From Actinomycetota bacterium (lineage in GTDB: Bacteria > Actinomycetota > Acidimicrobiia > IMCC26256 > VFJJ01), in assembly GCA_009886115.1 (NCBI GenBank), contig VFJJ01000011.1, forward strand, positions 27,348 through 91,347: DNA of 64,000 bases, in the 5' to 3' direction. The notes beneath the pieces were generated by a model. It was not told the DNA's origin, made no database searches, and saw only the letters and a list, made by a program, of their open reading frames with translations. Shown here piece after piece: positions 34,285-55,022 of the stretch (the stretch's first letter is position 1; each line of letters starts with the position of its first letter). The position numbers and the translations under genes are program-made.

Positions 34285-34329
34285 CCGGGCCCCCGCCGGT
34301 GCCGGCCTCCCTCGGCTGGCCCGCCCCGC

Positions 34330-35025: not shown

Positions 35026-35124
35026 ACCTGTGATTCTCCGCCACCGGCCGGGCTGTCGGAGCGGCGCTTTCGCTCACTGCCGGCGCGGTCACGACACGGA
35101 ACCATCGCGAGACCTGTAGGCGTC

Positions 35125-38100
35125 ATGACCGATCCCTTTGTGCACCTCCACCTGCACACCGAGTACTCCATGCTCGACGGCGCGGCGCGCATCGGCGACG
35201 TCGTCGCGGCCGTGAAGGCCGACGGGGCTCCGGCGGTCGGCATCACCGATCACGGGAACATGTACGGCGTGCTCGATTTCTACAAGGCGTGCAAGGCCGC
35301 CGAGCTCACGCCGGTCATCGGGATGGAGGGCTACTTCGTCACCGGCTCACGGTTCGAGCGTCCTCGTCGTGACGACCACGAGATCCGCCACCTCACCCTG
35401 CTCGCCGAGAGCACCGAGGGCTACCACAACCTCATCAAGATCTCGTCGTACGCCTTCCTCGACGGCTTCTACTACAAGCCCCGCCTCGACTTCGAGCTCC
35501 TCGAGAAGTACGGCAAGGGGCTCATCGCAACGAGCGGTTGCCTGGGCTCCGAGGTGTGCCAGCGGCTGTTGAAGGGCGACCCGGCCGGGGCGCTCGAGGT
35601 CGCGGCCACCTTCCAGACGATCCTCGGGCGCGACAACTACTTCATCGAGATGCAAGACCACGGCTTGCCCGAGCAGCACCAGGTGTTCAAGGCGCTGCTC
35701 GAGATCGCCGAAGCGATCCAGGCGCCGGTGCTGGCCACCAACGACAGCCACTACGTCAAGAGGGAGCACGCCGAGGCGCACGCCGCCCTGCTGTGCGTCC
35801 AGACCGGTGCCACCCTCGACGATCCGAAGCGGTTCAAGTTCGACGCCGACGAGTTCTACGTGAAGTCGGCCGTCGAGATGCGCCACCTGTTTCGCGAGCT
35901 CCCCGAGTCGTGCGACAACACCCTGTGGATCGCCGAGAGGGCCGCGGTCGAGATCGAGTTCGGCAACGCCCCGCTGCCCGTGTTCCCGGTGCCCGACGGC
36001 CACACCGAGGCGAGCTATCTGCGTGAGCTGGTCGAGGACGGGGCCCGGGCCCGCTACGGCGCCCCGATCCCGAGCGACGTCAGGGAGCGCCTCGAGTACG
36101 AGCTCGCCGTCATCACCGACATGGGCTTCCCGGGCTACTTCCTCGTGGTCTGGGATCTCATCCGGTTCGCCAAGGAGTCGGGGATCAGGGTGGGCCCTGG
36201 GCGGGGGAGCGCGGCCGGATCGCTCATCTCGTACTGCCTGCGGATCACCGAGTTGTGCCCCATCCGGTACGACCTCCTGTTCGAGCGGTTCCTGAACCCG
36301 GGCCGAAAGCAGATGCCCGACATCGACATGGACTTCGACGAACGTTATCGGGGCGACATGATCCGCTACGCCGCCGAGCGCTACGGCGACGACCGGGTGG
36401 CCCAGATCATCACGTTCTCCACGATCAAGGCCCGAGCTGCGGTCCGCGACGCCTCTCGGGTGCTCGGCTACCCGTACGTCGTCGGCGACAAGATCGCCAA
36501 GCTCATGCCGCCGCTCATCATGGGCCGAGACACCCCGCTGTACGCCTGTCTCGATCCGCACCCGAAGTTCGAGGACGGCTACAAGATGGCGGCCGAGCTC
36601 CGCCAGCTCTACCAGGACGACCCCGACGCCCGCCGGGTCATCGAGGTCGCCCGGGGGCTCGAGGGCCTCCGCCGGCAAGATGGCATCCACGCCGCCGCGG
36701 TGGTGATCGCACCGTCATCGCTCACCGAGTTCCTGCCGATCCAGCGCAAGCCCGAAGGGGCCACGGGCAAGGGCGGCGATTCGGGGGCCAAGGGCGGTGG
36801 TCCGAACCGGGCCGAACGCGAGGCCAACGCGCCCATTGTCACGCAGTACGAGATGCACGGGGTCGAAGATCTCGGCCTGCTCAAGATGGACTTCCTCGGG
36901 TTGCGCAACCTGTCGGTGATCGACCGCACCCTCGAGCTCGTCGAGCGGACCACCGGGGTCAAGCCCGACATCGACGGCGTGGCCCTCGACGACGAGACGA
37001 CCTTCGCCATGTTGCGCCGTGGCGACTCGATCGGGGTGTTCCAGCTCGAGGGCGGGCCCATGCGGGCGTTGATGCGCTCGCTCGCTCCCACCTCGTTCGA
37101 GGACATCTGCGCACTCGTCGCGCTCTACCGGCCCGGCCCGATGGCCGCCAACATGCACACCGACTACGCCGATCGCAAGAACGGCCGGCAGGCGATCACC
37201 TACTACGACGACGCGCTCGAGGAGGTTCTCGGCGACACCTATGGGCTCATGATCTACCAGGAGCAGCTCATGCGGGTTGCCCAGAAGGTGGCGGGATACT
37301 CGCTCGCCGAGGCCGACAACCTGCGCAAGGCGACCGGCAAGAAGATCCGGGAGCTGCTCGCGATGGAACGCGAGAAGTTCGTCTCGGGCTGCGAAACACA
37401 AGGGTTCGGTCGAGCCTTCGGTGAGCGCATGTTCGATATCATCGAGCCGTTCGCCGACTACTCATTCAACAAGTCGCACTCATTCGCCTACGGGCTCGTC
37501 AGCTATCAAACGGCATGGCTCAAGGCGAATCACCCCGTCGAGTATCTGGCGGCTCTCCTCACCTCGGTCAAGGCAAACCAGGACAAGGCCGCCGTGTACC
37601 TCAACGAGTGCCGGCAGATGGGCATCGAGGTCATGGTCCCCGATGTGAACGTCTCGGAGATGGATTTCGCGACACTGTACGGCGCGTCGAACGAACGGGC
37701 CGACGGGCGCATCACCTTCGGCATCTCGGGAATCCGAAATGTCGGTGAGGGTGTCGTCGAGCACGTTCTGGCCGAGCGCGAAGGGGCGGGGCTCTTCGTC
37801 GACTTCGTCGACTTCTGCGATCGCGTCGATCCGTCCGTGCTGAACAAGCGAACGGTGGAGTCGCTCATCAAGGCCGGGGCGTTCGACTCCCTCGGCCATC
37901 CCCGCAAGGGCCTCCTGCTGGTGCACGAGGAGATCATCGATCGCGCCCTCGACCGGCGGCGCGAGCGCGACGCCGGCATCATGAGCCTGTTCGGCGATCT
38001 TGGCGGCGCTGTCGATCCCGATGGTGCTTCGTTCGATCGGGTCAAGATCCCCGAGGTCGACTTCGACAAGCACGAGCGGCTGAAGTTCGAGAAGGAGATG

Positions 38101-38700
38101 CTCGGGCTCTACGTCTCCGACCATCCTCTCATGGGCGCCCAGCGGGCCCTGGCCCGTCACTGTGACGCCACGATCGGCGAGCTCGGCGAGCTCAAGGACG
38201 GCGACATGAGGATTGTCGGTGGTGTCGTCACCAACATGGCCCGGAAATACACCAGAAAGGGCGACCTGATGGCCACGTTCGTGCTCGAAGACCTTGAGAC
38301 GACGATCGAGGTCATGGTGTTTCCCAAGACCATGTCTGAACATGGATATCAGCTTGTCGACGATGCCATCGTTTGTGTGAAAGGTCGGCTCGACAATCGC
38401 GACGACCAGCCCAAGCTGATCTGCCTCGACGTGAAGCGCCCCGAGCTGATCCTCGACGGTGGGCCCCCGGTGCGCATCCGGCTGGGCGCCAACGCGCTCA
38501 CCGAGCGTCGCATCACGGAGCTGAAGTCGGTGCTCGAAGCGCATCCCGGTGACAGCCCCGTGTTCGTGCACCTCGACGGCGCTCCCGGCGGCGACGGCAG
38601 AACCACGGTGCTGCGCCTGGGGGACGAGTTCGCGGTCGATGCCCGCAACGGCCTCTTCGGCGAGCTGCGCGTGCTCTTCGGGGCCGGGTCGGTGCTGTAG
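35125..38700 (+). CDS. dnaE: DNA polymerase III alpha subunit (DnaE1)
   Basis: PHP domain FVHLHLHTEYSMLDGA. Polymerase core (DIDMDF, GLLKMDFLGLRNL). OB fold. 1191 aa. Confidence 0.97.
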   Translation: MTDPFVHLHLHTEYSMLDGAARIGDVVAAVKADGAPAVGITDHGNMYGVLDFYKACKAAELTPVIGMEGYFVTGSRFERPRRDDHEIRHLTLLAESTEGYHNLIKISSYAFLDGFYYKPRLDFELLEKYGKGLIATSGCLGSEVCQRLLKGDPAGALEVAATFQTILGRDNYFIEMQDHGLPEQHQVFKALLEIAEAIQAPVLATNDSHYVKREHAEAHAALLCVQTGATLDDPKRFKFDADEFYVKSAVEMRHLFRELPESCDNTLWIAERAAVEIEFGNAPLPVFPVPDGHTEASYLRELVEDGARARYGAPIPSDVRERLEYELAVITDMGFPGYFLVVWDLIRFAKESGIRVGPGRGSAAGSLISYCLRITELCPIRYDLLFERFLNPGRKQMPDIDMDFDERYRGDMIRYAAERYGDDRVAQIITFSTIKARAAVRDASRVLGYPYVVGDKIAKLMPPLIMGRDTPLYACLDPHPKFEDGYKMAAELRQLYQDDPDARRVIEVARGLEGLRRQDGIHAAAVVIAPSSLTEFLPIQRKPEGATGKGGDSGAKGGGPNRAEREANAPIVTQYEMHGVEDLGLLKMDFLGLRNLSVIDRTLELVERTTGVKPDIDGVALDDETTFAMLRRGDSIGVFQLEGGPMRALMRSLAPTSFEDICALVALYRPGPMAANMHTDYADRKNGRQAITYYDDALEEVLGDTYGLMIYQEQLMRVAQKVAGYSLAEADNLRKATGKKIRELLAMEREKFVSGCETQGFGRAFGERMFDIIEPFADYSFNKSHSFAYGLVSYQTAWLKANHPVEYLAALLTSVKANQDKAAVYLNECRQMGIEVMVPDVNVSEMDFATLYGASNERADGRITFGISGIRNVGEGVVEHVLAEREGAGLFVDFVDFCDRVDPSVLNKRTVESLIKAGAFDSLGHPRKGLLLVHEEIIDRALDRRRERDAGIMSLFGDLGGAVDPDGASFDRVKIPEVDFDKHERLKFEKEMLGLYVSDHPLMGAQRALARHCDATIGELGELKDGDMRIVGGVVTNMARKYTRKGDLMATFVLEDLETTIEVMVFPKTMSEHGYQLVDDAIVCVKGRLDNRDDQPKLICLDVKRPELILDGGPPVRIRLGANALTERRITELKSVLEAHPGDSPVFVHLDGAPGGDGRTTVLRLGDEFAVDARNGLFGELRVLFGAGSVL

Positions 38701-39535: not shown

Positions 39536-42031
39536 TCAGGCCCGCGGGAGCCCGAGTGGGAGCGCAGTCCGTCGGCGCACGTTGCGGGCGAGCACGAGTA
39601 GCGCCCACCCGCTCGAGCTCAGCAGGAGCGCTGCCAATCCTGTCCGACTGGTCTCGATCCCGGTGAACGCCAGGGTGTTCGTGCGGCGAGGTGCGGCGAC
39701 GGGCCCACCCACCGGGGCGGCGCCCTGCTCCACCACTGTGCCGGGCATGTCGTTGGTGACCAGGGCGGTCGTCATCGCGTTGGCCCCGATGAGCACGGTG
39801 AACGTCGGTGGGGCCTCGCTGGTCAGCGTCTGCGCCGTGCCGGTGTCGACGGCCACGGCCGTCGACACCGCGCCCGCTCGATCGGCCTCGGTGATCGAGC
39901 AGACGGTCCCCTCGGGCAACGGTGTCGCGAAGACGTGGCTGGCGGGGACGAGGCTGGCCGGGTCGGTGTCGACGGCGAACGTCGCGTCACCAGCTGAGAG
40001 CGTGACGCCGGAGCACGATGCCGTGAACGTGAACGGCCCGGTTCCCGCGCCGCCGGTTGTCGTCTTGGCGATCGTGAGCGCGCCGAACCGGAGCGCTGCC
40101 TGGCTCTTGGCGTTGGTGAAGGTGACGCCCGATTCTCGACCGCTCGTGATGACCACGGTGGTCGTCGGTCGGCCCTGGGCGTCGGATCCTCCCGGTGGAG
40201 CAACCGACATGGCCTCGGCGTCGCCCGAGGCGATCTCGGTCACCACGCACACCGCCCCCGAGGGGAGTGGTCCCGAGCGCCAGGGACGGTCGGGATCGAA
40301 CGAGATGCCCTGCTCAGCCCCGGTGATGACGGGCCGGCCGTTCAGCGAGCAGCTCGCTGCGACGGTGAACGGCCCCGTGACCGGTCCGGCGAGGGCGACC
40401 GTGGCCGTGAGCGTGCCGGCGGGCGGGAACCGGTTGTCGAAGTTCACGGTGACCGTCTGGTTGTTGACGATCGTCACGACGGTCTCGTTGGTTGGAACAC
40501 CCGCCGGTCCCGGGGGCGTGACGGTCACCGACTCGGCGCCGCCCGTTCCCGACTCGGTGACGAGGCAGACCGCCGACGCCGGCAGCGGCTCGGACACCCA
40601 GACCGCAGACGGTTCGAGCGGGATCTCGGTGACGGCAAAGACCAACGCCGCCCCGAGGGAGCACGACACGTCGGCGCTGAACCGGCCGATGGCCGGGCCG
40701 CCACTCACGGATGCGCCGATCAGGAGGTGTCCTTCGTAGCGGTTGGTCACCACGACCCGGGGGTTCTCGCCGGGCGCGAACGTGACGGTCCCCCCGCCCG
40801 TGACCTCGACCGTGGATGCGGAGTTCGGACGGCCGGGAGCCCCCGGGAGCTCCGAGACCGTGTAGGTCCCGGCCAGGAGACCCTCGAACACGTGCTGGAA
40901 GGCACCAGAGCCGGAATCGCCGTCGGGGAAGTCGTGTGATGCGACGACGCTCGAGCCGAGACGAACCTCGATCGTGTACACCTCGTCGGGCCCTGGAGTT
41001 CCCAGGATGAGCTTCTCGACCGTGATGGAGCCCCTGGTCGTCTGGAACACGGCGTTGGCGTGGGCCGTGACCGCCGTCGAGACCGTCGATGACAGCATGA
41101 GCCGTTGATGCTCGGTGCTCGAGTCGACGGCCTTGAACACGCGTCCGGAGGTGACCGCGGCGCGGTTGGTGGTCGCGCTCAGTCCCACGGTTCCGACACC
41201 GTTGTTGGGCCCGCCCAAGAGCTTGACGCAGACCTGCGACCCCGGCGTCGTGACCGCCGTGATCGGGGTGGTCGCATCGGCACACGAGACGATCGTCCCG
41301 TCACCGCCGGGATTGGTACCGGTGACCGTCAGCTCGACCGGCTCCGTCCAGTTCGCTCCCTCGACGGTGAACGCGATGAGCTGTCCCTCGGCCCCACTGG
41401 CCAGTGCCGGCGTGAACACCAGGCTCGGCGGCGGTTGTGGAGCGACGTTCGCCGGGTTGGCGGCGGCGGCGACGATCGAGTCGTACAGTGCCACCGCAGC
41501 CGGCGGGTTCGCCGACGCATCGAGGGTGAAGCCGGCCGTGACGTGCCAGATGGCTGCCTGGACCGCGACGACCTCGACATCGTCGGTATAACCCTGATCG
41601 GGCCCATGCGAGAGCAGGATCGACGAGACCCTGCTCAGAGCACTGGTCGGGATCGGCAGGTCGTTCCAGGCTGCTTCGTCGTAGGGAATCCTGAGCACGA
41701 GCTCCCGGTCGACATCGAGGCCATAGGCGAAGCCCGACGTGCCGTCGGGGAACCTCACCGTGACCAGCCCGCCGACGAACTGGGTGATGCCGGGCATCAG
41801 CGGCGTGGTGCCGGCGATCGCGCTGATGGTTCCACCCCTGGGCTCGATCGTCGCGGCCGCGAACGCCTGAGGCGCACGGGGCAGCGCCGTGAGTGCGAAG
41901 GCGGCGGTGAGTGCTGCCGCCACGCCGGTGGCGCGAGCGAGCCGTGACGTGAGCCAGGGGGGCCGAGTCGCACCGGGTGGCACTGCCGCGACGATGCGTG
42001 ACTCTGATCGAGCATCTCCCACATTCGCCAC
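39536..42031 (-). CDS. LAFTG-anchored cell-surface protein (thioester-like domain + Cna-B/SpaA-like + three DUF5979-like repeats)
   Basis: Signal peptide (ATGVAAALTAAFALTALPRAPQAFA). C-terminal sorting signal LAFTG (39659-39673), then a hydrophobic stretch, then RNVRRR. Three ~110-aa repeats each with G.F.F...C...P.G..C..TE. GTG 42031 is preceded by GGGAG. Confidence 0.85.
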   Translation of the reverse strand: MANVGDARSESRIVAAVPPGATRPPWLTSRLARATGVAAALTAAFALTALPRAPQAFAAATIEPRGGTISAIAGTTPLMPGITQFVGGLVTVRFPDGTSGFAYGLDVDRELVLRIPYDEAAWNDLPIPTSALSRVSSILLSHGPDQGYTDDVEVVAVQAAIWHVTAGFTLDASANPPAAVALYDSIVAAAANPANVAPQPPPSLVFTPALASGAEGQLIAFTVEGANWTEPVELTVTGTNPGGDGTIVSCADATTPITAVTTPGSQVCVKLLGGPNNGVGTVGLSATTNRAAVTSGRVFKAVDSSTEHQRLMLSSTVSTAVTAHANAVFQTTRGSITVEKLILGTPGPDEVYTIEVRLGSSVVASHDFPDGDSGSGAFQHVFEGLLAGTYTVSELPGAPGRPNSASTVEVTGGGTVTFAPGENPRVVVTNRYEGHLLIGASVSGGPAIGRFSADVSCSLGAALVFAVTEIPLEPSAVWVSEPLPASAVCLVTESGTGGAESVTVTPPGPAGVPTNETVVTIVNNQTVTVNFDNRFPPAGTLTATVALAGPVTGPFTVAASCSLNGRPVITGAEQGISFDPDRPWRSGPLPSGAVCVVTEIASGDAEAMSVAPPGGSDAQGRPTTTVVITSGRESGVTFTNAKSQAALRFGALTIAKTTTGGAGTGPFTFTASCSGVTLSAGDATFAVDTDPASLVPASHVFATPLPEGTVCSITEADRAGAVSTAVAVDTGTAQTLTSEAPPTFTVLIGANAMTTALVTNDMPGTVVEQGAAPVGGPVAAPRRTNTLAFTGIETSRTGLAALLLSSSGWALLVLARNVRRRTALPLGLPRA

Positions 42032-42272: not shown

Positions 42273-42908
42273 TCAGGCCGAGACCGTGAAGGTGGTGCTC
42301 ATCCCGTTCGAGAAGTGCGCGGTGAGCGCGTCCGACTCGATGTCGACGAGGTTGCAGAGCAGGACGTAGGTGCCCGGCGTCAACTCGAAGGTCCCGTCGC
42401 ACGACTGTTGGGCACCGAAGGCCTCGATCTCGCCGATGACCGATCCGGCAGGAGCTCCCGCTTCGTCGAACGAGCCCTCGTCGAGCGTCGGCAGCTCGGC
42501 GATCGTGTCGGCGCGCACGACCACCACCTCGTGATGGTGAGCGCCCTTGTTCTCTGCGACGAAGCGAATCGTTCCGGCGGTGATCGACGGCGGCTGGGCC
42601 ACGATCGCGTACTCGGTGAGGTGGAGCTCGACGGTCGCCGTGGCTGTCGTCGCATCGCCGACCGGCACGCAGGGCGCGTCCTCGCCGCCATGGGCAACTC
42701 CCGAGGCGCTCCCCGACGCGGGTTCGCTGGCCTCGGCGGGCGCCGACGCTGTGGCCGAGCCCGACTCGGCGGCCGATCCGGTCTCGGCGGCGGATTCCTC
42801 GGTCGGCGTGATGTCGCGGACCCCGGCACCGTCGTCGTCGCCACAGGCGGTGAGGCCGATCGCCAGGCAGAGTCCGAGCGTGGCGACGGTTCGGGTTCGA
42901 CGGTTCAT
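42273..42908 (-). CDS. cupredoxin-like lipoprotein
   Basis: Lipobox LTAC after MNRRTRTVATLGLCLAIG. AGGAGG RBS 8 nt upstream. C-terminal cupredoxin pattern ITAGTIRFVAENKGAHHHEVVV...GTYVLLCNL...AHFSNGM (His/Cys/His/Met). Confidence 0.8.
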   Translation of the reverse strand: MNRRTRTVATLGLCLAIGLTACGDDDGAGVRDITPTEESAAETGSAAESGSATASAPAEASEPASGSASGVAHGGEDAPCVPVGDATTATATVELHLTEYAIVAQPPSITAGTIRFVAENKGAHHHEVVVVRADTIAELPTLDEGSFDEAGAPAGSVIGEIEAFGAQQSCDGTFELTPGTYVLLCNLVDIESDALTAHFSNGMSTTFTVSA

Positions 42909-44530
42909 GATGAGGTCCTCCTGAAGGACGGGCCGGGAATCCGGCGTGTTCGAGGGAACGGGGAGACGATCGCGGCGTGTTTGGCGGGCCCGGGGGGCGG
43001 TGAGCTTGCCACGATCGCGGCTCGGGTTGGACGCGGTCGTCGCGAGCCTCGCCAGCCGAGCACGGCCAGCGCGGCCACGACGATCGTCCATGCTGCCGCC
43101 AGCACGACCGAGGCCCGAGTGCGATCACGGAGATCGGGCAGGGCGTGTCGCCAGATCCGGTACACGGGGAACTCGGTGCGGGTGAAGTCGATGATCAGCC
43201 GGTGGTGCCCGGCGAGCACCTCGACGACCTGCCACACGAATGCGAGCACGCCGACGCTCCCGAGCACGCCCACGCCGACGATCCGCCCACGCGTTCTCGC
43301 CGAGTGCGCGTCGGCGCCGACCCACGATGCCAGCGCCAGCACCGCGCACGGGACGACCACCACCACCTGACGCCCAGGCCACCACCAGCCGTGCATCGTG
43401 AGCGCGACCCACGTGGCGTTGGCCCACCCGGCGGCGATCGGCACGACGAGGGCCAGGGCCGACACCCGGGCCGGCGCCTCGTCGCTGCTGGAGCTGGAGA
43501 GAGCGCCGGACCCCAGAGCACCGGGGCTCGGCTGCACGCGGTGCGCGCCAGCGACGGCAGCACGGGCCTGGGCGGCCAGGGCGGGGACGATCAGGAGGAG
43601 GACGGGGGCCCAGGCGATGAGGCCGAACTCCCGGTCGACGAGGAGGCCGATGAGTCGTTGGGTCCGGCCGAGAACGTCGGGATCGCTCCCGGTCACGGTG
43701 AGCTCGCCGCCCCGGAAGTGCGTCCCCGAGGCGTACGGGGTGAGGCCGCCGTAGATCTCCCCATGGGCCACGGCGAAGGCGACCCCGGCCAGGGTGAGGG
43801 CGACGGCCGACCCCACCAGGGCGCGGCGCCGGGACTCCCCGTGCAGCCGCCACCCCGCCACGGCCGCCAACGCCACCGCAACCGGCGCGTACTTCACCGA
43901 GAGCCATGGTAGAGCGACGATGGCCCCGATGAACGTCGTGATCCCCAGACGCCGCATGGGTCCGGTGATGGCAGCGATGGCGATGGCGACGGTCAGGGCG
44001 GCCACGATCTCGGGGTAGACCTGGGTGCCGTACACCGCCAGCGGGGCTGCCAGCGACGACGCGCCCACCACCAGGACGGTCGGTCGCACGCGAGCGCCGT
44101 ACCGGGTGACGGCCGTCCACGTCATCACGGCGGCGAGCAGTCCAGCCACGAGCGCGAGCAGCACCTTGGCCCCGATCCATCCGCCGACGGCCACAGGTAC
44201 CGCGAGCAGCACGGGCAGGAGCGGATCGTGCGGCGAGATCGCCGTCCCGTCGGCACGCAGCGTCTCCTGGCGGGGCAGGTCGACCTCGTGGAAGGCCAGG
44301 AACCGTCCGGCGACGCGTTCGTCGGCGATGTCGAGATCGCCGTCCTCGAAGAGGCTGATCGCGCTCAACAGGTACTGGGGCTCGTCGGCGGTGGTCCGGG
44401 TGTTGTAGGTGGCCCGGGCCCCGATGCCCGAGGCGCACCAAAGGGCCGTGAGGATCCCGAGCGAGATCGCAGCGCGGGTAGCCGTCGACAGCGGCCTCCT
44501 GGCCGAACGAGCAACACCGGTCGTGGTCAT
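42905..44530 (-). CDS. polytopic membrane protein, GT-C-like glycosyltransferase candidate (ArnT/PMT_2-like)
   Basis: 541 aa with more than 10 predicted TM helices. First loop has ADEPQYLLSAISLFEDGDLDIADE (acidic DE motif). ATGA overlaps at both ends (44527-44530 and 42905-42908). Confidence 0.65.
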   Translation of the reverse strand: MTTTGVARSARRPLSTATRAAISLGILTALWCASGIGARATYNTRTTADEPQYLLSAISLFEDGDLDIADERVAGRFLAFHEVDLPRQETLRADGTAISPHDPLLPVLLAVPVAVGGWIGAKVLLALVAGLLAAVMTWTAVTRYGARVRPTVLVVGASSLAAPLAVYGTQVYPEIVAALTVAIAIAAITGPMRRLGITTFIGAIVALPWLSVKYAPVAVALAAVAGWRLHGESRRRALVGSAVALTLAGVAFAVAHGEIYGGLTPYASGTHFRGGELTVTGSDPDVLGRTQRLIGLLVDREFGLIAWAPVLLLIVPALAAQARAAVAGAHRVQPSPGALGSGALSSSSSDEAPARVSALALVVPIAAGWANATWVALTMHGWWWPGRQVVVVVPCAVLALASWVGADAHSARTRGRIVGVGVLGSVGVLAFVWQVVEVLAGHHRLIIDFTRTEFPVYRIWRHALPDLRDRTRASVVLAAAWTIVVAALAVLGWRGSRRPRPTRAAIVASSPPPGPAKHAAIVSPFPRTRRIPGPSFRRTSS

Positions 44531-46218
44531 GGCACCAGCTCGGGCGGGCGCTGCGGTCGGATGACGAGCGCCCAGGTGAGCACGCCAGAGACGAGGATGA
44601 GCAGGAGGCTCCTGAACCCCGCCCGGGCGTAGAAGCCGTCGCCGGCGTTTCCGTAGATCTCGGTCGCCAGCGTCGAGAACTCGATGGGGGCCAGCAATCG
44701 GGTGGCCGGCAGCTCCTTCATGGTCGACATGAGCACCATGCCGAAGCCGGTGACCAACCCGGGGAGCATCAGCGGTCCGTCGATGGTTCGCAGTCGTCGC
44801 CATCGGCGGGCGCCGAGTGACCGGGCGGCGTCGTCGAGCCGGCCGGGGACGGCGCTCACCGCGACCTGGCTGGCGCGCAGGGCCTGCGCGCCGAAGTGCA
44901 CGACATAGGCGAGCACCAACATCGGGAAGGTCTGGTAGAGCGCCGCGCCCACGCTCGTCTGGAGCGTCCACGCCACGATCGCCAGTGCGATCACCAAGCC
45001 AGGTAAGGCGAATCCGGCCGTGACGACCACCGAGGCCGGTCCGCTGGCTCGCGATCGGTACCGTCCGGCGAGGAAGGCCAGTGGCAGCACCAGGCCGACC
45101 GTGACCACCGAGGCCACCACCGACACCCACGCCGTGTTCCACGCCGCAGACCCGACACCTTCGGAGCCCACCCCGTCGCCGCCGAGGCGGTCTCCGGTGA
45201 GGCCTCGGCTCGTCCAGAGCCCCAGGACCGCCACGGGCAGCAGCAGGGCCAGGCCGACCACAGCGGCCATGAACCCGGTGGCCACCGGCTTCCACCGTCC
45301 CAGAGGCGCTGGCCTGACCGGAGCCGTCGAGACGGCCTCGAACGGCAGTCTCCGGCGGGTGACGATCCGCTCAGCCGAGACGCACGCCAGGGCCAGCAGC
45401 CCCAGGAGGAGGCTGGAGACCGCAGCCGCGCTCGGATCGAACAGCTTGGCCCTGTCGATCTGGGTGGTGAGCGTGGTGTAGTCGAGCAGCGTCACCGCCC
45501 CGAACTCGCTGAGCACGTAGAGGAACACGATGAGGGCCCCGGCCCACACCGAGCCGGCGATCTGAGGAGCGACGACGGTCCGGAAGACCGCGAACGGCCG
45601 CCGGCCGAGCGCCCGGGCGCCCTCCTCGATCGAGCTCGGCAGGGCTCGGAGCCGAGCGGAGACGGGGAGGTACACGTACGGGTACGTGAGGAGGGTCAAG
45701 ACGGTGAACGCGCCGCTGAAGCCGCGTACGTCGGGGGTCTCGATGCCGAGCGGCTGGAGCACTTCGGCCACCAGCCCTCCGGGTGCGAATGCCGCGAGGA
45801 GCGCCAGCCCGCCGACGAACGACGGCACGACGAGCGGCAGAGGAAGGATCGCGGACCACACCCGTCGCCCCGCCAGATCCGTACGGACCACCAGCCAGGC
45901 CAGCGTCGTGCCCAGGGCCGTCGCTGCGAGGGTCACCGCCGCGGCCAGGGTGAGGGTGTGGCGCAGCGCCGTGTGGGTGATCTCGTCTCCGAGGACCTCA
46001 CCCAGGTCGGCCCCGAGCTCCACGTTTCGCCACACGAGGTACACGAACGGCGCCGCGAACAGCACAGCCACCGCGATGGAGGCCGTGATCAGGGACCGGG
46101 GCGCCCGTCGTTCGACCAACCGGGAGCCGCGGACACCCCGGACGCCCTGGGAGCCCGTGCGGCGCGCGAGCGCTCGTCGTGCCTCGCCCTGATCGACGGG
46201 TCGGGACTGCGTCGGCAC
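44527..46218 (-). CDS. iron(III)-type ABC transporter permease (two fused MetI-like domains)
   Basis: Two EAA loops (IEEGARALGRRPFAVFRTV and LDDAARSLGARRWRRLRTI). About 12 TM. Follows the binding protein after 6 nt. Confidence 0.88.
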   Translation of the reverse strand: MPTQSRPVDQGEARRALARRTGSQGVRGVRGSRLVERRAPRSLITASIAVAVLFAAPFVYLVWRNVELGADLGEVLGDEITHTALRHTLTLAAAVTLAATALGTTLAWLVVRTDLAGRRVWSAILPLPLVVPSFVGGLALLAAFAPGGLVAEVLQPLGIETPDVRGFSGAFTVLTLLTYPYVYLPVSARLRALPSSIEEGARALGRRPFAVFRTVVAPQIAGSVWAGALIVFLYVLSEFGAVTLLDYTTLTTQIDRAKLFDPSAAAVSSLLLGLLALACVSAERIVTRRRLPFEAVSTAPVRPAPLGRWKPVATGFMAAVVGLALLLPVAVLGLWTSRGLTGDRLGGDGVGSEGVGSAAWNTAWVSVVASVVTVGLVLPLAFLAGRYRSRASGPASVVVTAGFALPGLVIALAIVAWTLQTSVGAALYQTFPMLVLAYVVHFGAQALRASQVAVSAVPGRLDDAARSLGARRWRRLRTIDGPLMLPGLVTGFGMVLMSTMKELPATRLLAPIEFSTLATEIYGNAGDGFYARAGFRSLLLILVSGVLTWALVIRPQRPPELVP

Positions 46219-46224
46219 GACGGG

Positions 46225-47277
46225 CTAACGACCCAATCCGCTCTGGTTGATGAGCTCCTCGGTCGTTTCGAGCTCGCCGCCGAGCGACGCCAGGTCACCG
46301 CCTGCGCCCGAGATGCCGGCCAGCGGCTGGTCTGCCAGCTCGCCGCTGGGGGCGACGCCTGCGGCCAAGGGGTACTCGAGCGTCTGCTGGCTGAAGTACG
46401 ACTGCGACTCGGCTCCGAGCAGGAACTGCAGCAGCACCTCGGCTTCGTCGCTCTGGTCGGACGTGGCCACCACCCCGCCAGCGGTCACGAGGATGAGCTT
46501 GCCGATGTCGCCGTCGGAGAAGAAGTGGTTGGCCACCGGGAGGTCGGGATTCTCGCGGCGGGCCTGGAGCGCGTAGTAGTGGTTGACGAGCCCGTACGGC
46601 ACCTCGCCCCGACCGACGGCCTCGACGATGGCGGTGTTGTTCGCGAAGCTCTGGGCACCGTTGGCGGCCAGGCCTTCCAGGAACGCCAGTGTCTCGGCGT
46701 CGCCGATCTGCTGGCGTGCCGCGGTGACGAAGTCCTGGAACGAGCCGTTGGTGGGTGCCAGCCCCACCTGGTCGCGGTAGGCGGGCCCGGTGAGCTCGAG
46801 CGCCGAGGTCGGCAGCGTGGCCGGATCGACCAGATCGGTGTTGTAGACGAGCACCCGAACCCGACCGGAGAGCCCGACCCACAGGCCCGCGGGGCTGCGG
46901 AACCGTTCGTCGACGAGCCCCAGGGTGGCGTCGGAGATCGGTGTCAGGCGGTCGCGGCCGGCGAGGAAGCCGATGGCGCCCGGGCTCTGGGAGATGAACA
47001 CGTCGACTTCCGACCGGTCGCCCTCGGCGTCGATGAGCAGCGCCAGCTCGGCCGAATCGCCGTACCGGACGCACACGTCGACGTCGCTCTCCTCGTTGAA
47101 CCGGTCGAGGATGGGAGCGACGAGCGCTTCGGTCCGGCCCGAGTACACGGTGAGCCTGCCCGCGCACGCGTCGCCGCCCCCACCTCCACAACTGGCGAGC
47201 ACACTGGCGAGAACGACGATCGCCGGCGCGATCGATGCGGGACGGAGCAGGCTTGCGAGTCGGATCATGGCGCTCAT
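46225..47277 (-). CDS. iron(III) ABC transporter substrate-binding lipoprotein (FbpA/AfuA-like)
   Basis: Lipobox LASC. LTVYSGRTEALVAPILDRF...DVFISQSPGA...LVNHYY pattern of Fe3+-binding proteins. Confidence 0.85.
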   Translation of the reverse strand: MSAMIRLASLLRPASIAPAIVVLASVLASCGGGGGDACAGRLTVYSGRTEALVAPILDRFNEESDVDVCVRYGDSAELALLIDAEGDRSEVDVFISQSPGAIGFLAGRDRLTPISDATLGLVDERFRSPAGLWVGLSGRVRVLVYNTDLVDPATLPTSALELTGPAYRDQVGLAPTNGSFQDFVTAARQQIGDAETLAFLEGLAANGAQSFANNTAIVEAVGRGEVPYGLVNHYYALQARRENPDLPVANHFFSDGDIGKLILVTAGGVVATSDQSDEAEVLLQFLLGAESQSYFSQQTLEYPLAAGVAPSGELADQPLAGISGAGGDLASLGGELETTEELINQSGLGR

Positions 47278-47300
47278 GGTGCCATATCGACAAGCTCTTG

Positions 47301-47319
47301 TAAAGTATACCTAACCAAA
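47301..47319 (-). promoter_or_regulatory. weak IdeR/DtxR-like iron box overlapping a TATACT -10 element
   Basis: Minus-strand TTTGGTTAGGTATACTTTA versus consensus TTAGGTTAGGCTAACCTAA: 13/19 matches, with 9/10 in the left half. Lies 24-42 nt upstream of the binding-protein ATG, in an AT-rich patch. Confidence 0.3.
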
Positions 47320-47372: not shown

Positions 47373-48260
47373 ATGGGGCCACGCCTCCGAGTGAACGCGG
47401 TCGAGCGACTCGAGCAGAACGAGGATGGGGGTCGCGGCGCGCCGCTCGCGATCGCCCCGATCGCCGTGTCGGCCGACCGAGCTGACGGCGCCGAGCCGGT
47501 GATGTTGTTCCTCCCGGCCTTCGACGAGGAGGAGGCCGTGGCCGGGGTGATCGGCCGGGTTCCCGCGACCGTGTGCGGTCGGGCGGTGCGTTGCCTCGTG
47601 ATCGACGACGGCTCGCGTGATGCCACCGTGGACCGGGCTCGGGCCGCCGGGGCCGAGGTCGTCACCCTCGGCGTGAACGCGGGTCTCGGTGCCGCGGTCC
47701 GCCGGGGTTTGCGCGAAGGCGTCGATCGCGGGGCCAGCGTGGTGGTGTTCTGCGACGCCGACGGCGAGTACGCGCCAGAGGAGCTCGAGCGGTTGGTGAC
47801 GCCCATCCTCGCCGGCCGGGCCGACTACGTGGTGGGCACCCGCTTCGGCGACGGGCGCCCGTGCCGCATGCTCGCCCACCGATGGCTGGGCAACATGCTG
47901 CTCACCCGCTGGCTGGCCTTCACGGCCCGTCGCCCCATCACCGACGGCCAGACGGGATACCGGGCCCTCTCGCTGCGAGCGGCGGCCGAGGCGTCCATCG
48001 CTCACGACTACAACTACGCGCAGGTGCTGACCCTCGACCTCCTCGCCCGGGGCTTCCGGTACGAGGAGGTGCCGATCTCGTACCACTTCCGCACCACGGG
48101 ACGGTCGTTCGTCCGTCTTGTCCCGTACCTGCGCAACGTGGTCCCAGCCGTGTACCGGGTCGTCAACCGGCGTGAGGTGGCCACGCAGCCGGCGCCCGTC
48201 CCGGTCGCTGGCGCGAGGATGGCGGCTCAGTCGTCGACGACGTGGGCGTCGAACGACTGA
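47373..48260 (+). CDS. GT2 family glycosyltransferase (polyprenol-phosphate sugar synthase-like, DPM1/Ppm1-like)
   Basis: FLPAFDEEE, IDDGSRDAT, CDADGE (DxD), and VVGTRF...TDGQTGYRA. GGAAAGGGG RBS. Confidence 0.85.
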   Translation: MGPRLRVNAVERLEQNEDGGRGAPLAIAPIAVSADRADGAEPVMLFLPAFDEEEAVAGVIGRVPATVCGRAVRCLVIDDGSRDATVDRARAAGAEVVTLGVNAGLGAAVRRGLREGVDRGASVVVFCDADGEYAPEELERLVTPILAGRADYVVGTRFGDGRPCRMLAHRWLGNMLLTRWLAFTARRPITDGQTGYRALSLRAAAEASIAHDYNYAQVLTLDLLARGFRYEEVPISYHFRTTGRSFVRLVPYLRNVVPAVYRVVNRREVATQPAPVPVAGARMAAQSSTTWASND

Positions 48261-49669
48261 CGGGCTGCGCTCCAGCGAACCGGATCGAGCCGGCCCGCCT
48301 GATCGAGCGCCTCGACCGCCGTCCAGCCCGTTGTCATGGCGTGGTGCGAGTTGTCGTGCGCGAACAGGCCCTGACGTCCGAACGAGACCACGTTGGGCAG
48401 GCTCGTGATCCAGCGCTCGACCTGCGCCAGCGCCTCCGGGTGGGCGAGGTCGTAGACGGGGTACACGCTCGGTGCCCGTCGTACCACCGTCTCCACCGGC
48501 ACGACCTCGCCCAGACCCATCCGAGCGAGATCGTCGACGATGGCGCTGGCCAGGTCGTCGGCTGACGCGCTCCAGATGTCGTCGCCCTGCCGGCACGGGA
48601 TCTCGGCGCACAGCACGGTCGTCGCCGGCGGGTCGGCGGCGCTGTCGCGATAGTTCCTGGGCTCGGAGATGCGGCTCGCCCGCGACTCCGGTCCCGGGAG
48701 GTAGTGCGCGTCGAACTCGCTGAAGCGGGGCCGATCGAGCACGAGGTACACGAAGGTCATGGCCCGCGAGCGCAGGCTCGACGCCGCATCGACGACGGCC
48801 CGGGGCGCCTCGGGTGTCCGGATCAGTCGGGTCAGCGTCGTGAGCGGGATGGTCGACCAGAGCTGCCCGCCCGTCGCCAGTGGCGCGTCCGTACCGTCGA
48901 GTCCCACGACGGCGCTCGACTCCGAGCCCGTCCCGAGGTGGACGCCCACGATCTCGGCGTCGAAGACCAGCCGGGCCCCGGCGTCGGTCGCCGCCTCGGC
49001 CAGGCGTTCGCAGATCTGGCCGAAACCCCGTCTCGGGTACCAGAACGCCGGGGCGGCGCGTCCCGGTCGGGCCGCGGCGACGACCCGGGCGAGCAGGGCC
49101 CGTCCCGACGGCGTGGCGATGCGGCGTCGGGCAAGCTCCGGATGGAGCTCCTCCGGGCCGAGACCCCAGAGCTTGCGGGCATAGGGACCGTAGAGCTCGT
49201 CGAGCATCGTGGGGCCCAGGCGCAGCCGCACGGCATCGGCGAAGGTGACCGGCGCCGTGGTGGCCATGGTGCGTGGCGCCCGGGCGCCGATCAGGTCGCG
49301 GCCGAGGCGGGCCGCGAGCCCGGGCCGGGTGTGCGCCACCAGATCGAACGGGCGCAGCGGGAAGCGCAGCCACCTGCGGTCGATCCGGATGCGACCGTTG
49401 CGTGGGCGACGTTGCAGGTCGCTCCCGAGCAGCCGCTCGAGCAGCGCCATGATTCGAGGGTCGGTGGAGGGATGCAGCCGGTGCGAACCGTGATCGACCC
49501 TGATGCCGGCGACCTCGAAGCTCGCCGCCAATCCCCCGGGATGCGAGTCGCGCTCGAGGACGACCACCTCGTGACCCCGCGTCGCCAGTTGGTACGCCGC
49601 CATCAGCCCGGCCGGCCCAGCACCCACGACGACATGCTGGGCCGAGTGCAACGCCTCCGGTCGGGACAT
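48227..49669 (-). CDS. FAD-dependent oxidoreductase (amine-oxidase / UDP-galactopyranose-mutase-like fold)
   Basis: N-terminal VVVGAGPAGLMAAYQLATRGHEVVVLERDSHPGG dinucleotide fold. ELYGPYARKLWG and a C-terminal GRQGLFAHDN segment resemble Glf-type proteins (recalled from memory). 34-nt convergent overlap with the GT2 gene. Confidence 0.75.
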   Translation of the reverse strand: MSRPEALHSAQHVVVGAGPAGLMAAYQLATRGHEVVVLERDSHPGGLAASFEVAGIRVDHGSHRLHPSTDPRIMALLERLLGSDLQRRPRNGRIRIDRRWLRFPLRPFDLVAHTRPGLAARLGRDLIGARAPRTMATTAPVTFADAVRLRLGPTMLDELYGPYARKLWGLGPEELHPELARRRIATPSGRALLARVVAAARPGRAAPAFWYPRRGFGQICERLAEAATDAGARLVFDAEIVGVHLGTGSESSAVVGLDGTDAPLATGGQLWSTIPLTTLTRLIRTPEAPRAVVDAASSLRSRAMTFVYLVLDRPRFSEFDAHYLPGPESRASRISEPRNYRDSAADPPATTVLCAEIPCRQGDDIWSASADDLASAIVDDLARMGLGEVVPVETVVRRAPSVYPVYDLAHPEALAQVERWITSLPNVVSFGRQGLFAHDNSHHAMTTGWTAVEALDQAGRLDPVRWSAARQSFDAHVVDD

Positions 49670-49712: not shown

Positions 49713-50051
49713 CTACCTGAACCAGATCTTCTGGTGGTCGCGGCTCATCGGGTGCAACAGCAGGGCGACGAGCGCGATGTCGAACATGAGCCCGATGACG
49801 TTGAACTGGAGCGAGGACAGCACGCCCCCCGGATCGAACGGGATGAACACGAACGGGAGGAACGCGGCGACGAGGCTCACGACGTAGCCCCATTTCTTCG
49901 AGTTGGCCAGCCCGATCGCGGCCGCGCCGTAGAGCACCACGAGGACCAGGCTGAACCCGAGGAGCGCGAAGACCCCCCGCGCGTAGAGCAGGAAGGTCGC
50001 GACCTGGAGGGTCTGGGGCTGGTGGGGGTCGAACCACCGAAAGTCGTTCAC
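49713..50051 (-). CDS. small integral membrane protein (3 TM), unknown function
   Basis: GTG 50051 overlaps the rlmN stop (GTGA). Hydrophobic segments VATFLLYARGVFALLGFSLVLVVLYGAAAIGL, WGYVVSLVAAFLPFVFI and NVIGLMFDIALVALLL. Confidence 0.65.
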   Translation of the reverse strand: MNDFRWFDPHQPQTLQVATFLLYARGVFALLGFSLVLVVLYGAAAIGLANSKKWGYVVSLVAAFLPFVFIPFDPGGVLSSLQFNVIGLMFDIALVALLLHPMSRDHQKIWFR

Positions 50052-51208
50052 GGGGCCATTCTGACCGACGGACGTCGGCTCGGAGACGCAACGCCCGTCT
50101 CGGCCTCGGCTCCGTCCCGCTCGCGCCAACGAAGCTGCCCGCACGCGGCATCGATCGACACGCCCCGATTGCGGCGGATGGTGGCGTTGACGCCTCCGGC
50201 GATGAGCTGGCTGGCGAAGCGCTCGATGGTGTCGCCGCTGCTGGCCCGGGCCACCAGGCCGGCGGTCTGGTTGTACGGGATCAGGTTCACGTGCGCCCCG
50301 GTCGACGAGAAGCGGCGGAGCAAGGCCGCCAAGGCCCGGGCGCACTCATCGGTGTCGTTGACCCCTTCGAGCATCGTGTACTCGAACGTGATGCGTCGTC
50401 CCTTGGCCGCGGCGAACTCACGGGCGGCGTCGAGCAGCTCGGCGATGGGGTAGCGCCGGTTGAGCGGGACGATCGTGCTGCGGATCTCGTCGAACGGTGC
50501 GTGGATCGACACGGCCAGCGTGACGGGCAGGCGTTCGGCTGCCAATCGCCGGATCCCGGGCACGACCCCGACCGTGGAGATCGTGAGATGGCGGGCCGAG
50601 AGCCCGAGATCGCCGTGGAGCCGCTCGACCGATGCCCAGACGGCGTCGTAGTTGGCCAGTGGTTCGCCCATCCCCATGAAGACCACATTCGACACCCGCT
50701 GCGGGGTCTCGTGGCTGGCCCGAAGCACCTGCTCGACGATCTCGGAGGTGCTCAGGTGCCGCTCGAACCCGGCCTGACCCGTGGCGCAGAACGTGCACGC
50801 CATGGCGCATCCGGCTTGGGACGACACGCACACCGTCGCCCGTCCCCGGCTGGCGTCACGCTCGGGATAGCGCATGAGGACCGTCTCGACCTGGGCCCCG
50901 CCAGAGACGCATTCCCAGAGCCACTTGACCGTGAGCTCATCGTCGGCGATCGACCGGGCCCGCTCGACCAACGCCTCGGGCAGGGCGGTCTCGAGCTGGT
51001 CTCGGAGCGCCGCGGGCACGTCGGTGAGATCGGCCAGGCGCGCCCTCCTGCTCCAGAGCCCGTCCCAGAGCTGGTGGGCCCGATAGGGAGGCTCGCCCAT
51101 CGCGGCGATCAGCGCGTCGATCTGGCCTCGGGTCGCGCCGTAGCGATCGAGCGAACCGGTACCGGACCCGAGGCGTGCGGCGCCGGGAGGCTCGGGGGTG
51201 GAGCTCAT
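50048..51208 (-). CDS. rlmN: 23S rRNA/tRNA adenine-C2 methyltransferase RlmN (radical SAM)
   Basis: [11 protein letters not shown] radical-SAM cluster. [10 protein letters not shown] motif. C-terminal DAACGQL. ATGA overlap with the mshD stop. Confidence 0.93.
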
Positions 51209-52213: not shown

Positions 52214-54127
52214 ATGGATCGTGCAGATTGCCGGGCTCCCACCCGTTTCCCGGGGCGTTTCGCCACCGGAGCGCTCACCAGGTCGCGGCCCTGCGTGTCG
52301 CGGCCCTGCGTGTCGGTGCTGATGCTCGTCACCGGCCTCCTCGTCGCCGCGATCTCGCCGGCGTCAGCGGCGGCGACCATGGGTGATGGCGGTGGCGATG
52401 GCGATCCGTCGACCGTCGAGCTCGTGGTGACGCGTCGGACCCCCGAGGGCTCCCTGGCCTTCGATGCCGTCGATGTCCCGCTGGTCGACGTCGAACGGGT
52501 CTCGGTTGCGTTCCGGACCCAGCCCGACGTGGTCGCGGTCGCCCCGTCCGTCGGCTACGTCTCGCTGTCGATCGGCGGACCCGTCGGTCTTGCCGGCCCG
52601 CGTGGTGGCGGCCGGATCACGGCGGCTGCGGCGGGTCCCGGCGTCGGTGCGGCCGACCCACGACGGGCCGAGCAGTGGAACCTCGACCAGATCGGCGTCG
52701 AAGGCGCATGGTCGAGCGTCGACCCCAGCGGCATCGTGGTCGCCGTCATCGACACCGGCCTGCGGGCCGATCATGAGGACTTCAGCGGGGCCCAGGTGCT
52801 TCCCGGCGTCGACGCCACGGCGTTCGTCGACGGAGCCGGCCGTTCGGCGACCGCTCCGATCGGCGGCCGGATCGGCGCGGCCTCGGATCCCGTGGGGCAC
52901 GGGACCTTCGTCGGCGGGATCGTCGGTGCGGGATTTCGCAACGGGCGAGGGATCGCGCCCGTCGCCCCCGGCGTGCAGGTGCTGCCCATCACGACGTTCT
53001 CCAACGACGGGCTGGGCAGCTCCGAGGCGGTGGCGCCGGCGATCGTCTGGGCCGTCGACCACGGCGCCGACGTGGTGAACCTGTCGCTTGGCAGCGTGCA
53101 CTCCGATCCCACCATGCATGCCGCTGTCGCCTACGCCGAGTCGCGGGGCGTCGTGGTGGTGGCCGCGGCAGGGAACTACGGCATGGCGATCCCGGTGTAC
53201 CCCGCTGCCTACCCCGAGGTGCTGGCCGTGGCGGCCACCGACCGGTCAGGCCGCCGGGCCTCGTTCTCGGAGATGGGGCCGTGGGTCGATCTGGCGGCAC
53301 CGGGTGACGACGTGGCGTCGACGACGGTCGACGGCGGATATGGCACCTGGCGAGGCACGTCGTTCGCCGCTCCGCACGTCTCGGCGGCCGCCGCGCTGGT
53401 GCTCGCCGCCCGGCCCGACGCAACCCCCGCCCAGGTGCGGGCCCTCCTCGTGAACCACAGTCGAGACGCGGGCGCCCAGGGGTTCGACGAGTTGTACGGA
53501 TGGGGCATCCTCGACGTGGGAGCTGCGGTTCGGGCCGCGGCCCGGCCATCGGGCGGGTATCGCACGGTGACCCGGCGGGGAATCGTCGAATCGTTCGGCG
53601 ACCGTCTGGCACCGGCCCCGGCCCCGGCCGCGCCGGGAACGGGCGGGCCGCCCGCCGTGTCCTCCGAGAGCGGCGCGCTGGCGCCCGGAGCAGCGCTCGG
53701 CGAGCCGGCGCCGGTGGTCGGCGCCGCGGCGCGCGTCGGCGGTGGAGTCTGGATGGTCACGGCCGACGGGATCGTCCGCCCGAGTGGCGGGGCGCCCCAT
53801 CACGGCGACGTGGCGACGGCCCGGATGCGTGTGGTGGCGCCGATCGTGGGTGTGGCGGGGACGCCGTCTGGTGGTGGGTATTGGTTGGTGGCGTCGGATG
53901 GGGGTGTGTTCTCGTTCGGTGATGCTGGGTTCTTCGGGTCGCTCGGCGATCGGACCCTCAACGGCCGCATGATCGGCGTGACGGCGACCCCGTCGGGCGC
54001 CGGCTACTGGCTGCTCGGTGACGACGGCGGTGTGTTCAGCTTCGGCGACGCCACCTTCCATGGCTCGTCGGTCGAGCGCGGCGGCACCGCTTCGGCGGGT
54101 GGAGCGGCCATCCTCATCGCCGGGTGA
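52214..54127 (+). CDS. secreted S8 (subtilisin-like) serine protease with C-terminal [12 protein letters not shown] repeats
   Basis: Catalytic triad contexts [17 protein letters not shown] and [15 protein letters not shown]. Signal-like [19 protein letters not shown]. Alternative starts at 52310, 52316 and 52322. Confidence 0.88.
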
Positions 54128-54920: not shown

Positions 54921-54946
54921 CCGCCCGGTCAGCGGCCGACCCCTCT

Positions 54947-54997
54947 CCAAATTTGCGCGGAAACGCGCACCAGGTGCACATTTCCGCGCAAATTTGG
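54947..54997. terminator. perfect 17-bp inverted repeat with nested palindrome (candidate bidirectional terminator or operator)
   Basis: CCAAATTTGCGCGGAAA (54947-54963) and TTTCCGCGCAAATTTGG (54981-54997). The 17-nt loop contains GCACCaGGTGC. Sits between convergent nth and ORF 55023..55307. Confidence 0.5.
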
Positions 54998-55022
54998 GCG
55001 ACGGTGGGCGACGGTGGGCCCC

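Follow-up and report, generated by a model that had tools for sequence, protein, structure and literature searches.

Ferric-iron importers of the FbpABC, HitABC and SfuABC type combine a substrate-binding protein (SBP) that holds iron at a Tyr-Tyr site, in some cases with an added Asn, with a fused permease carrying two EAA loops and an ATPase of the PotA/FbpC class. In the glycosylation systems ArnC/ArnT, GtrA/GtrB/Gtr-type, CsbB/GtcA/YfhO, Ppm1/Pmt and PpgS/Rv3779, a small cytoplasmic glycosyltransferase of family 2 (GT2) is paired with a membrane enzyme of the GT-C fold, and the succession of GT2, flippase and GT-C enzyme is the standard layout in ArnC-ArnT, Gtr, CsbB-GtcA-YfhO and Ppm1-Pmt. 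EfeUOB and FtrABCD, the latter through the cupredoxin FtrB, tie an extracytoplasmic cupredoxin to iron uptake, and the regulons of DtxR and IdeR are marked by a box over the promoters of iron-uptake genes. Here we analysed a stretch of 64,000 nucleotides (the window) from an Actinomycetota bacterium of the class Acidimicrobiia (contig VFJJ01000011.1, positions 27,348 to 91,347), which holds a cluster with features of each of these systems. We put at roughly 0.6 the probability that an iron box controls this locus and that the locus joins ferric uptake to a polyprenyl-phosphate-sugar glycosylation module, with the ATPase encoded elsewhere and a cupredoxin as an accessory. The building blocks are each known. 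What appears to be undescribed is that they stay together throughout a whole class of Actinomycetota, abundant in soil, marine and wastewater habitats and for the most part uncultured; the literature that we searched holds no report of an FbpAB importer united with GT2/GT-C, a cupredoxin and a DtxR/IdeR box.

The G+C content of the window is about 71 %. The cluster consists of the following features, with coordinates counted from the first letter of the window:

46225-47277, minus strand: FbpA-type binding lipoprotein (SBP), 350 aa, lipobox LASC
44527-46218, minus strand: fused FbpB-type permease, 563 aa, GTG start 6 nt past the SBP gene
42905-44530, minus strand: polytopic GT-C-fold protein, 541 aa, no curated family
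42273-42908, minus strand: cupredoxin lipoprotein, 211 aa, lipobox LTAC
47301-47319, minus strand: DtxR/IdeR-like box (putative operator), a candidate from a motif match
47373-48260, plus strand: GT2 of the polyprenyl-phosphate-sugar synthase type, Pfam Glycos_transf_2
48227-49669, minus strand: FAD-dependent oxidoreductase, 480 aa, PRK07208/amine-oxidase fold

The permease gene is joined to the gene of the 541-aa protein by an ATGA stop/start overlap at 44527-44530. A second ATGA overlap, at 42905-42908, joins this gene to the lipoprotein gene and is preceded by AGGAGG 8 nt upstream. No terminator-like sites were found inside the four-gene string. An earlier note, made from the letters of this DNA, had described these four genes, and its coordinates, lipobox, both overlaps and the AGGAGG were all confirmed. 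The translational coupling of a GT-C gene to the permease gene sets the locus apart from FbpABC.

For comparison, a profile of the 541-aa protein was scanned over one genome per species, and relatives were found in 334 species. We kept 80 loci, each with up to 10 kb on either side, and mapped the window proteins onto them. All relatives of the cluster belong to Acidimicrobiia-type Actinomycetota; the closest one (L001, JANLSK01) shows protein identities of 76-97 % to the window. In 48 of the 69 evaluable loci, each from a different species, the 541-aa gene is immediately preceded by the permease gene, so the gene order is not peculiar to one strain. A culturable relative, Actinospongicola halichondriae Hal317 (L048, NZ_CP171622.1), carries the complete cluster. 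Of 54 junctions between the permease gene and the 541-aa gene, 30 are overlaps of 4 nt and nine are overlaps of 1 nt.

The SBP matched Pfam SBP_bac_6, SBP_bac_1, SBP_bac_8 and SBP_bac_11. Searched against the sequences in the PDB, its top match was FbpA of Vibrio metschnikovii (7W3W, E 1e-65), followed by Thermus FbpA (3WAE/4ELO, 2e-45) and further by HitA, SfuA, YfuA and the FbpA proteins of Neisseria and Haemophilus. Named iron-binding proteins make up 28 of the 31 PDB matches, and the other three are among the four weakest (E >= 8e-5). In the Vibrio protein (VmFbpA), Fe3+ is bound by Tyr195, Tyr196, two bicarbonates and waters, and Asn138 replaces the third tyrosine of the Thermus protein (PMC10804667). 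The NHYY motif of the SBP aligned to Tyr195/Tyr196 and its APTNG motif to Asn138. The earlier note had called this protein FbpA-like, which agrees with both the match to 7W3W and the conserved Tyr-Tyr dyad and Asn. Judged from its sequence, it is a true FbpA-type ferric-binding protein that keeps the predicted iron ligands. Binding of 2-aminoethylphosphonate (AEP) or thiamine was also considered from NCBIfam matches, but these were weak and far under the cut-offs, and this possibility was set aside. The host is presumably monoderm, and unlike in FbpABC, HitABC and SfuABC the binding protein is here a lipoprotein. In the permease, Pfam BPD_transp_1 was matched twice, and EAA-type loops are present in the translation as IEEGARALG and LDDAARSLG. 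Its best NCBIfam matches were fused permeases of the Fe3+/AEP/thiamine group, all under the cut-offs. Comparison with L001 gave ratios of nonsynonymous to synonymous substitution rates (dN/dS) of 0.26 (SBP) and 0.21 (permease), which indicate purifying selection, so both seem to be maintained.

No open reading frame (ORF) with both Walker A and an ABC signature was found across the whole 64-kb window, and tblastn of the window with the FbpC-like ATPase of a relative gave a best match of only E = 0.86. The absence that the earlier note had reported for 38.7-50 kb therefore holds and extends to the full window. Its conclusion, an importer without an ATPase whose slot has been taken by other genes, does not survive the comparison with relatives. 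We counted ATPase genes in the 34 loci that have the permease-GT-C pair and at least 9 kb of upstream DNA. In 24 of them, an ATPase of the FbpC/PotA class (GPSGCGKT...LSGGQ) is encoded within 10 kb. The usual layout is the ATPase and then the FAD enzyme on the same strand, a divergent GT2, and then the SBP, the permease and the 541-aa gene. In two loci the ATPase gene is inside the same gene string, in the order ATPase-SBP-permease-GT-C-cupredoxin (L020) or SBP-permease-GT-C-ATPase (L078). The gene is never in the canonical last slot of FbpABC, directly after the permease gene. The remaining 10 of the 34 loci, L001 included, have no ATPase within 10 kb. The absence from the neighbourhood is a trait of the lineage of the window and L001, i.e. 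a loss, and not of the system. Since the SBP and permease are still under purifying selection, the ATPase is most likely supplied in trans from a gene elsewhere in the genome. The importer is apparently not ATPase-independent, as had been misread, and its ATPase gene seems to be relocated.

Two observations concern the region where relatives carry this gene. A 115-aa hydrophobic ORF without a Pfam match (49713-50060, minus strand), located between rlmN and the FAD-enzyme gene, occupies the position of the ATPase gene of the relatives; it is not recognisable as a flippase. In L014 (987-4710) and L062 (2180-5950), where the GT-C gene has no importer genes directly upstream, a complete distant SBP-permease-ATPase set with 26-30 % identity to that of the window stands ahead of the FAD enzyme, which suggests an alternative or ancestral arrangement.

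The 541-aa protein had no match in Pfam or NCBIfam, and its profile recovered 0 matches at E <= 10 among the PDB sequences. The AlphaFold2 (AF2) model has a predicted local distance difference test score (pLDDT) of 81 and a predicted template modelling score (pTM) of 0.85. All Foldseek matches in the PDB with high probability are GT-C enzymes; the best is ArnT (5F15, probability 1.0, TM score 0.46, E 3e-3), and EmbC, AftA, ALG9, ALG12 and PMT are the other top matches. Based on the model, the protein has a GT-C fold and belongs to an uncharacterised family, in line with the GT-C-like character proposed for it before. The family is large, as a word-indexed search of a protein collection gave 2565 homologues, and 276 representative clusters were counted under 1e-30. 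Its conserved motifs are ADEPQY, EDxDLDxxDE, SPHDPLLP, YGTQVYPE and MHGWWWPGRQ, and the outer loops are rich in invariant Asp, Glu and His. ADEPQY is located at residues 48-53, after the helix at 13-33; D49, P51, Q52 and Y53 are invariant in the family, and E50 is found in at least 90 % of the sequences. GT-C enzymes usually have their catalytic signature, an acidic DE motif, directly behind the first transmembrane helix, and by its position ADEPQY is a candidate for the catalytic Asp/Glu of ArnT or PMT. The window protein also has a 29-residue insertion rich in Ser, Ala and Gly (residues ~335-363, positions 43440-43530), modelled as a low-confidence loop. It is shared only with the closest homologue, P0002, and is lacking in the other 22 aligned members.

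The earlier note had left the role of the GT-C-like protein unexplained and had missed the adjacent gene that accounts for it, a GT2 of the polyprenyl-phosphate-sugar type transcribed divergently from the SBP operon. In NCBIfam this protein matched AglJ (2e-30), PpgS (2e-20), a dolichyl-phosphate-hexose transferase (5e-17) and ArnC (4e-6), all under the cut-offs, and it is also DPM1-like. As the family matches begin only at residues 43-47, the N-terminus at 47373 is probably about 40 residues too long, and the true start probably lies near 47500. A GT2 match was found in most of the 80 loci. The association is also seen in fusion proteins, namely GT-C with a flippase-like LPG_synthase_TM domain and GT2 (P0231, the GT2 part of which is plainly orthologous to the GT2 of the window), GT-C with GT2 (P0313), a flippase-like domain with GT-C (P0325 and P0237) and an NAD-epimerase with GT-C (P0244). 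Like the three-component glycosylation systems, relatives of the cluster have a flippase-like membrane protein, encoded upstream of the GT2 gene in 20 of the 80 loci and present in the fusions. The differences are that the GT-C protein falls in no curated family, that the flippase-like partner is of the LPG_synthase_TM type and not GtrA, and that the module here stands inside an iron-uptake locus behind DtxR/IdeR-like boxes.

The FAD enzyme is encoded convergently to the GT2, and the 3' ends of the two ORFs, on the minus and plus strand respectively, overlap by 34 nt (48227-48260). It matched Pfam Amino_oxidase and NAD_binding_8 and, in NCBIfam, PRK07208 with 253 bits against a cut-off of 380. 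Its nearest solved relatives are UDP-galactopyranose mutases (UGMs), with E 3e-10 over residues 10-219 only. A role in sugar tailoring is possible. In relatives the FAD-enzyme gene follows closely behind the fbpC-like ATPase gene on the same strand, and this pair is found in about 20 loci.

The control region of the cluster provided a further link to iron. Upstream of the SBP gene we identified a box with the core TTAGGTATACTTTA at 47301-47314, extended to the 19-mer TTTGGTTAGGTATACTTTA. It is located 24 nt upstream of the start codon and overlaps a -35-like TTTACA. Allowing up to one mismatch, the pattern TTAGGNNNNCYTWA has a single match in the 64-kb window, which is this box. Aligned regions upstream of the SBP genes of relatives share the motif TTAGG-N4-CTTTA(CA), with the consensus GTTAGGc-nnn-CTTTACa, and the palindrome GTTAGG-N4-CCTAAC is the inner part of the actinobacterial IdeR/DtxR box TTAGGTTAGGCTAACCTAA. 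Of 50 related loci, 37 have such a box in the 150 nt or so before the SBP gene, where 0.8 would be expected. Ahead of the GT-C gene it was found in 13 of the 24 loci without importer genes upstream and in 0 of the 54 with the permease upstream. It also precedes the cupredoxin gene (6/22), the FAD-enzyme gene (10/48) and the ATPase gene (8/30). The best sites agree with the IdeR 19-mer at 16-17 of 19 positions by eye (e.g. L022 and L042), and among the sites ahead of SBP genes the highest tally is 15 of 19. These latter sites differ from those of known DtxR/IdeR regulons in a fixed variant right half, CTTTAC, which doubles as the -35 element. The earlier note had passed over these DtxR/IdeR-type boxes, which the whole cluster carries.

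Clustering of the remaining ORFs showed that the commonest extra neighbour is a gene for a three-domain DtxR-family repressor, present in 61 of the 80 loci. Its product contains Fe_dep_repress, Fe_dep_repr_C and FeoA domains, and its best NCBIfam match is the actinobacterial DtxR. The gene is mostly convergent with the GT-C gene and directly after it; none was found in the window. As in DtxR/IdeR regulons, the box lies over iron-uptake promoters. The putative regulon here also takes in a glycosylation module, which we did not find described for IdeR or DtxR in the searched literature. Since the GT-C gene has its own box where it lacks importer genes, and adjoins the repressor gene, the glycosylation genes seem to be more than passengers. 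A second DtxR-family paralogue, about 45-48 % identical to the main one, is encoded ahead of the ATPase gene, in the opposite orientation, in L004 (3143-3700), L008, L015, L020, L022, L030 and L080. In L008, L020, L022, L030 and L080, a near-perfect palindrome of the form GGTAAGGGTACCCTAAGC is located at or just upstream of the ATPase start.

Regarding the lipoprotein at the end of the string, the His/Cys/His/Met pattern pointed out before was borne out by comparison, as the ligands H126, C185, H198 and M203 are invariant in 27 homologues and the fold is akin to the cupredoxin domain of EfeO. The loop from Cys to His is acidic and, at 12 residues, unusually long. The protein contains a linker rich in Ser, Gly and Ala, and the AF2 core has a pLDDT above 93. 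Foldseek retrieved auracyanin (E 5.5e-7), the cupredoxin domain of E. coli EfeO (7WGU), AcoP of Acidithiobacillus, azurin and small laccases. Relatives of the protein carry PF13473, and NCBIfam gave weak matches to CopI and to the N-terminus of EfeO. By sequence and model, the lipoprotein is a cupredoxin with a predicted type-1 copper site. Its linkage to the cluster is patchy. Only 15 of 75 loci have the gene in the 800 nt that follow the GT-C gene, and some copies are encoded on the other strand behind a box of their own.

About ten loci have, beside the GT-C gene, an EfeO consisting of the M75 domain only, together with a Dyp-type EfeB, which recalls EfeUOB. This EfeO scores above the NCBIfam cut-off but covers model positions 117-359 only, and in L003 the order is box-EfeO-EfeB-box-cupredoxin. 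The window differs from EfeUOB in having neither an EfeO M75 domain nor EfeB (no search was aimed at an FTR1-type permease); no EfeB match was found, and the only hit of an EfeO-like query was to the part of the cupredoxin gene that encodes the N-terminal lipoprotein region. In further contrast to EfeUOB and FtrABCD, the cupredoxin forms a lipoprotein of its own with the complete His/Cys/His/Met type-1 set, and the importer is of the ABC type. Considering the fold matches, the patchy linkage and the Efe neighbours, the lipoprotein is best seen as a separate EfeO-type cupredoxin domain with an accessory role. It may plausibly oxidise Fe2+ for the FbpA-like receptor. The cupredoxin and the EfeO-like lipoproteins of relatives have the same mature N-terminal sequence, C-G-D-D-D-G-A-G-V-R, and after it a linker rich in Ser and Gly (window 42840-42870, cupredoxin residues 22-31; L003:2145-3092; L004:11292-12500). 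This segment is the source of the N-terminal match to the NCBIfam 'FEA1-related lipoprotein', and it could be a sorting, metal-binding or glycosylation tag.

In our preferred reading, the cluster would be one arm of an iron-starvation locus maintained throughout Acidimicrobiia, and it could work as follows. The DtxR/IdeR-type box over the operon promoter would keep the operon repressed when iron is plentiful, and under iron scarcity SBP, permease, GT-C and cupredoxin would be transcribed together as one unit. By homology to the Vibrio protein, the FbpA-like lipoprotein would bind Fe3+ through its Tyr-Tyr dyad, the Asn and bicarbonate and pass it to the fused FbpB permease. Transport would be powered by an FbpC-type ATPase, encoded a few kb upstream in most relatives and presumably elsewhere in the lineage of the window. 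Judging from fold, neighbourhood and fusions, the divergent GT2 would make a polyprenyl-phosphate sugar as the donor for the GT-C protein, which would add one sugar to an acceptor outside the membrane. In relatives, the sugar on its lipid carrier would be flipped by the flippase-like protein and might be tailored by an epimerase or by the UGM-like flavoenzyme. As to the acceptor, we can only guess; lipoproteins of the uptake system, or the wall polymer that surrounds them, are our best candidates. The cupredoxin would be a stand-alone equivalent of the EfeO domain in Fe2+/Fe3+ redox at the surface, accessory and not core.

A bolder version is possible, although we hold it as tentative. The iron-repressor-controlled set of GT2, flippase-like protein and new GT-C family, possibly with the UGM-like flavoenzyme, might be integral to iron acquisition; FbpA, EfeO, the cupredoxin or a wall polymer would then be glycosylated during starvation, and efficient capture of Fe3+ would depend on the sugar. 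If the link between the two modules is functional, glycosylation of the envelope or of lipoproteins would be part of a bacterial iron-starvation response, a large orphan family of membrane proteins would gain a function, and a testable regulon would be defined for Acidimicrobiia.

Several points weigh against the preferred reading. The GT-C assignment is a moderate structural match (TM score 0.46, E 3e-3) without a sequence link to a curated GT-C family. Some of the fusions may be artefacts of metagenomic gene calling, and P0312 is probably two adjacent genes, because its own lipobox is kept. A flippase-like gene of the LPG_synthase_TM type was not found in the window, and the FAD enzyme resembles UGMs only loosely. 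The box of the window shares only 13 of 19 positions with the canonical IdeR 19-mer, and a search of the window with the 19-mer, allowing up to three mismatches, found nothing. Conservation of a promoter could explain in part why the box is conserved, since its right half also serves as a -35-like hexamer. Finally, the 64-kb window contains neither the ATPase nor the repressor gene, and the supply of the ATPase in trans is something that we infer.

Among the other explanations, the one proposed in the earlier note, namely an importer that truly works without an ATPase, with a surface cupredoxin that oxidises Fe2+ and hands Fe3+ to the FbpA-like receptor and with the GT-C protein and cupredoxin filling the vacant slot, appears unlikely to us. 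It would fit the lack of an ATPase gene in the window and within 10 kb in 10 of the 34 relatives, the invariant type-1 copper site with its likeness to AcoP and the EfeO cupredoxin domain, and the own iron box at some cupredoxin genes. The EfeO/EfeB-type Fe2+-oxidising components beside the GT-C gene in about ten loci would fit as well, and no EfeU-type gene was noticed among the few annotated flanking ORFs, where no systematic search was made. However, the ATPase is encoded in 24 of the 34 related loci, twice inside the same gene string, and the permease keeps both EAA loops under purifying selection. Moreover, no more than 15 of 75 loci have the cupredoxin gene close behind the GT-C gene, it can be encoded on the other strand, and a single cupredoxin would have no evident electron sink here. 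We consider it highly improbable that the 541-aa protein is not an enzyme but a metal-handling or scaffold subunit of the membrane, for instance a stand-in for EfeU that binds iron by its conserved acidic and His residues. The high-probability fold matches are exclusively GT-C enzymes, the protein is fused or adjacent to a polyprenyl-phosphate-sugar-type GT2, a flippase-like domain and a sugar epimerase, and it has a candidate for the DE motif usual in GT-C enzymes after the first transmembrane helix. These observations outweigh the density of invariant Asp, Glu and His in its outer loops, the lack of a sequence match to any characterised glycosyltransferase and its position beside EfeO/EfeB in L004, L023 and L066, again with no EfeU-type gene among the few annotated flanking ORFs.

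It is also conceivable, but quite unlikely, that the gene order was inherited without any shared function, and that GT2, GT-C and the FAD enzyme are an ordinary envelope glycosylation module read through from the iron genes. GT2 and GT-C proteins form a standard pair in glycosylation and are not known to be connected with iron. The genes for GT2 and GT-C are immediate neighbours in 12 loci, without importer genes in the middle, and because all loci come from one class, our counts are inflated by shared ancestry. Yet the linkage outlasts rearrangements in which the ATPase gene stands before or after the string, the FAD-enzyme gene on either side, or the importer genes are displaced. Of 54 junctions with the permease gene, 39 show the stop/start overlap, and most loci have the repressor gene next to the GT-C gene. 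Among the 24 loci where the GT-C gene lacks importer genes upstream, 13 have a box immediately before it, and boxes also precede the FAD-enzyme gene and the ATPase-FAD-enzyme pair. We prefer the reading in which the iron box controls uptake and glycosylation together.

Outside the cluster, an 831-aa surface protein is encoded directly downstream of the cupredoxin gene (39536-42031, minus strand). It contains a thioester domain (TED), three DUF5979 repeats and a C-terminal sorting-like motif, LAFTG, followed by a hydrophobic tail. Its gene has the same position in L001 and not in the other loci. On the other side, a secreted subtilase (Peptidase_S8) with repeated C-terminal units outside the Pfam coverage is encoded at 52214-54127 on the plus strand. 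Housekeeping genes flank the cluster at 24712-38700 and 54162-63763, with products including DivIVA, IleRS, a DksA-like protein, an RluD-like pseudouridine synthase, DnaE, an HhH-GPD repair enzyme of the endonuclease III type and HisD, and histidine-biosynthesis (His_biosynth) genes are located at the window end. Most relatives differ in this respect, as the repressor gene and further iron genes adjoin their cluster on the GT-C side.

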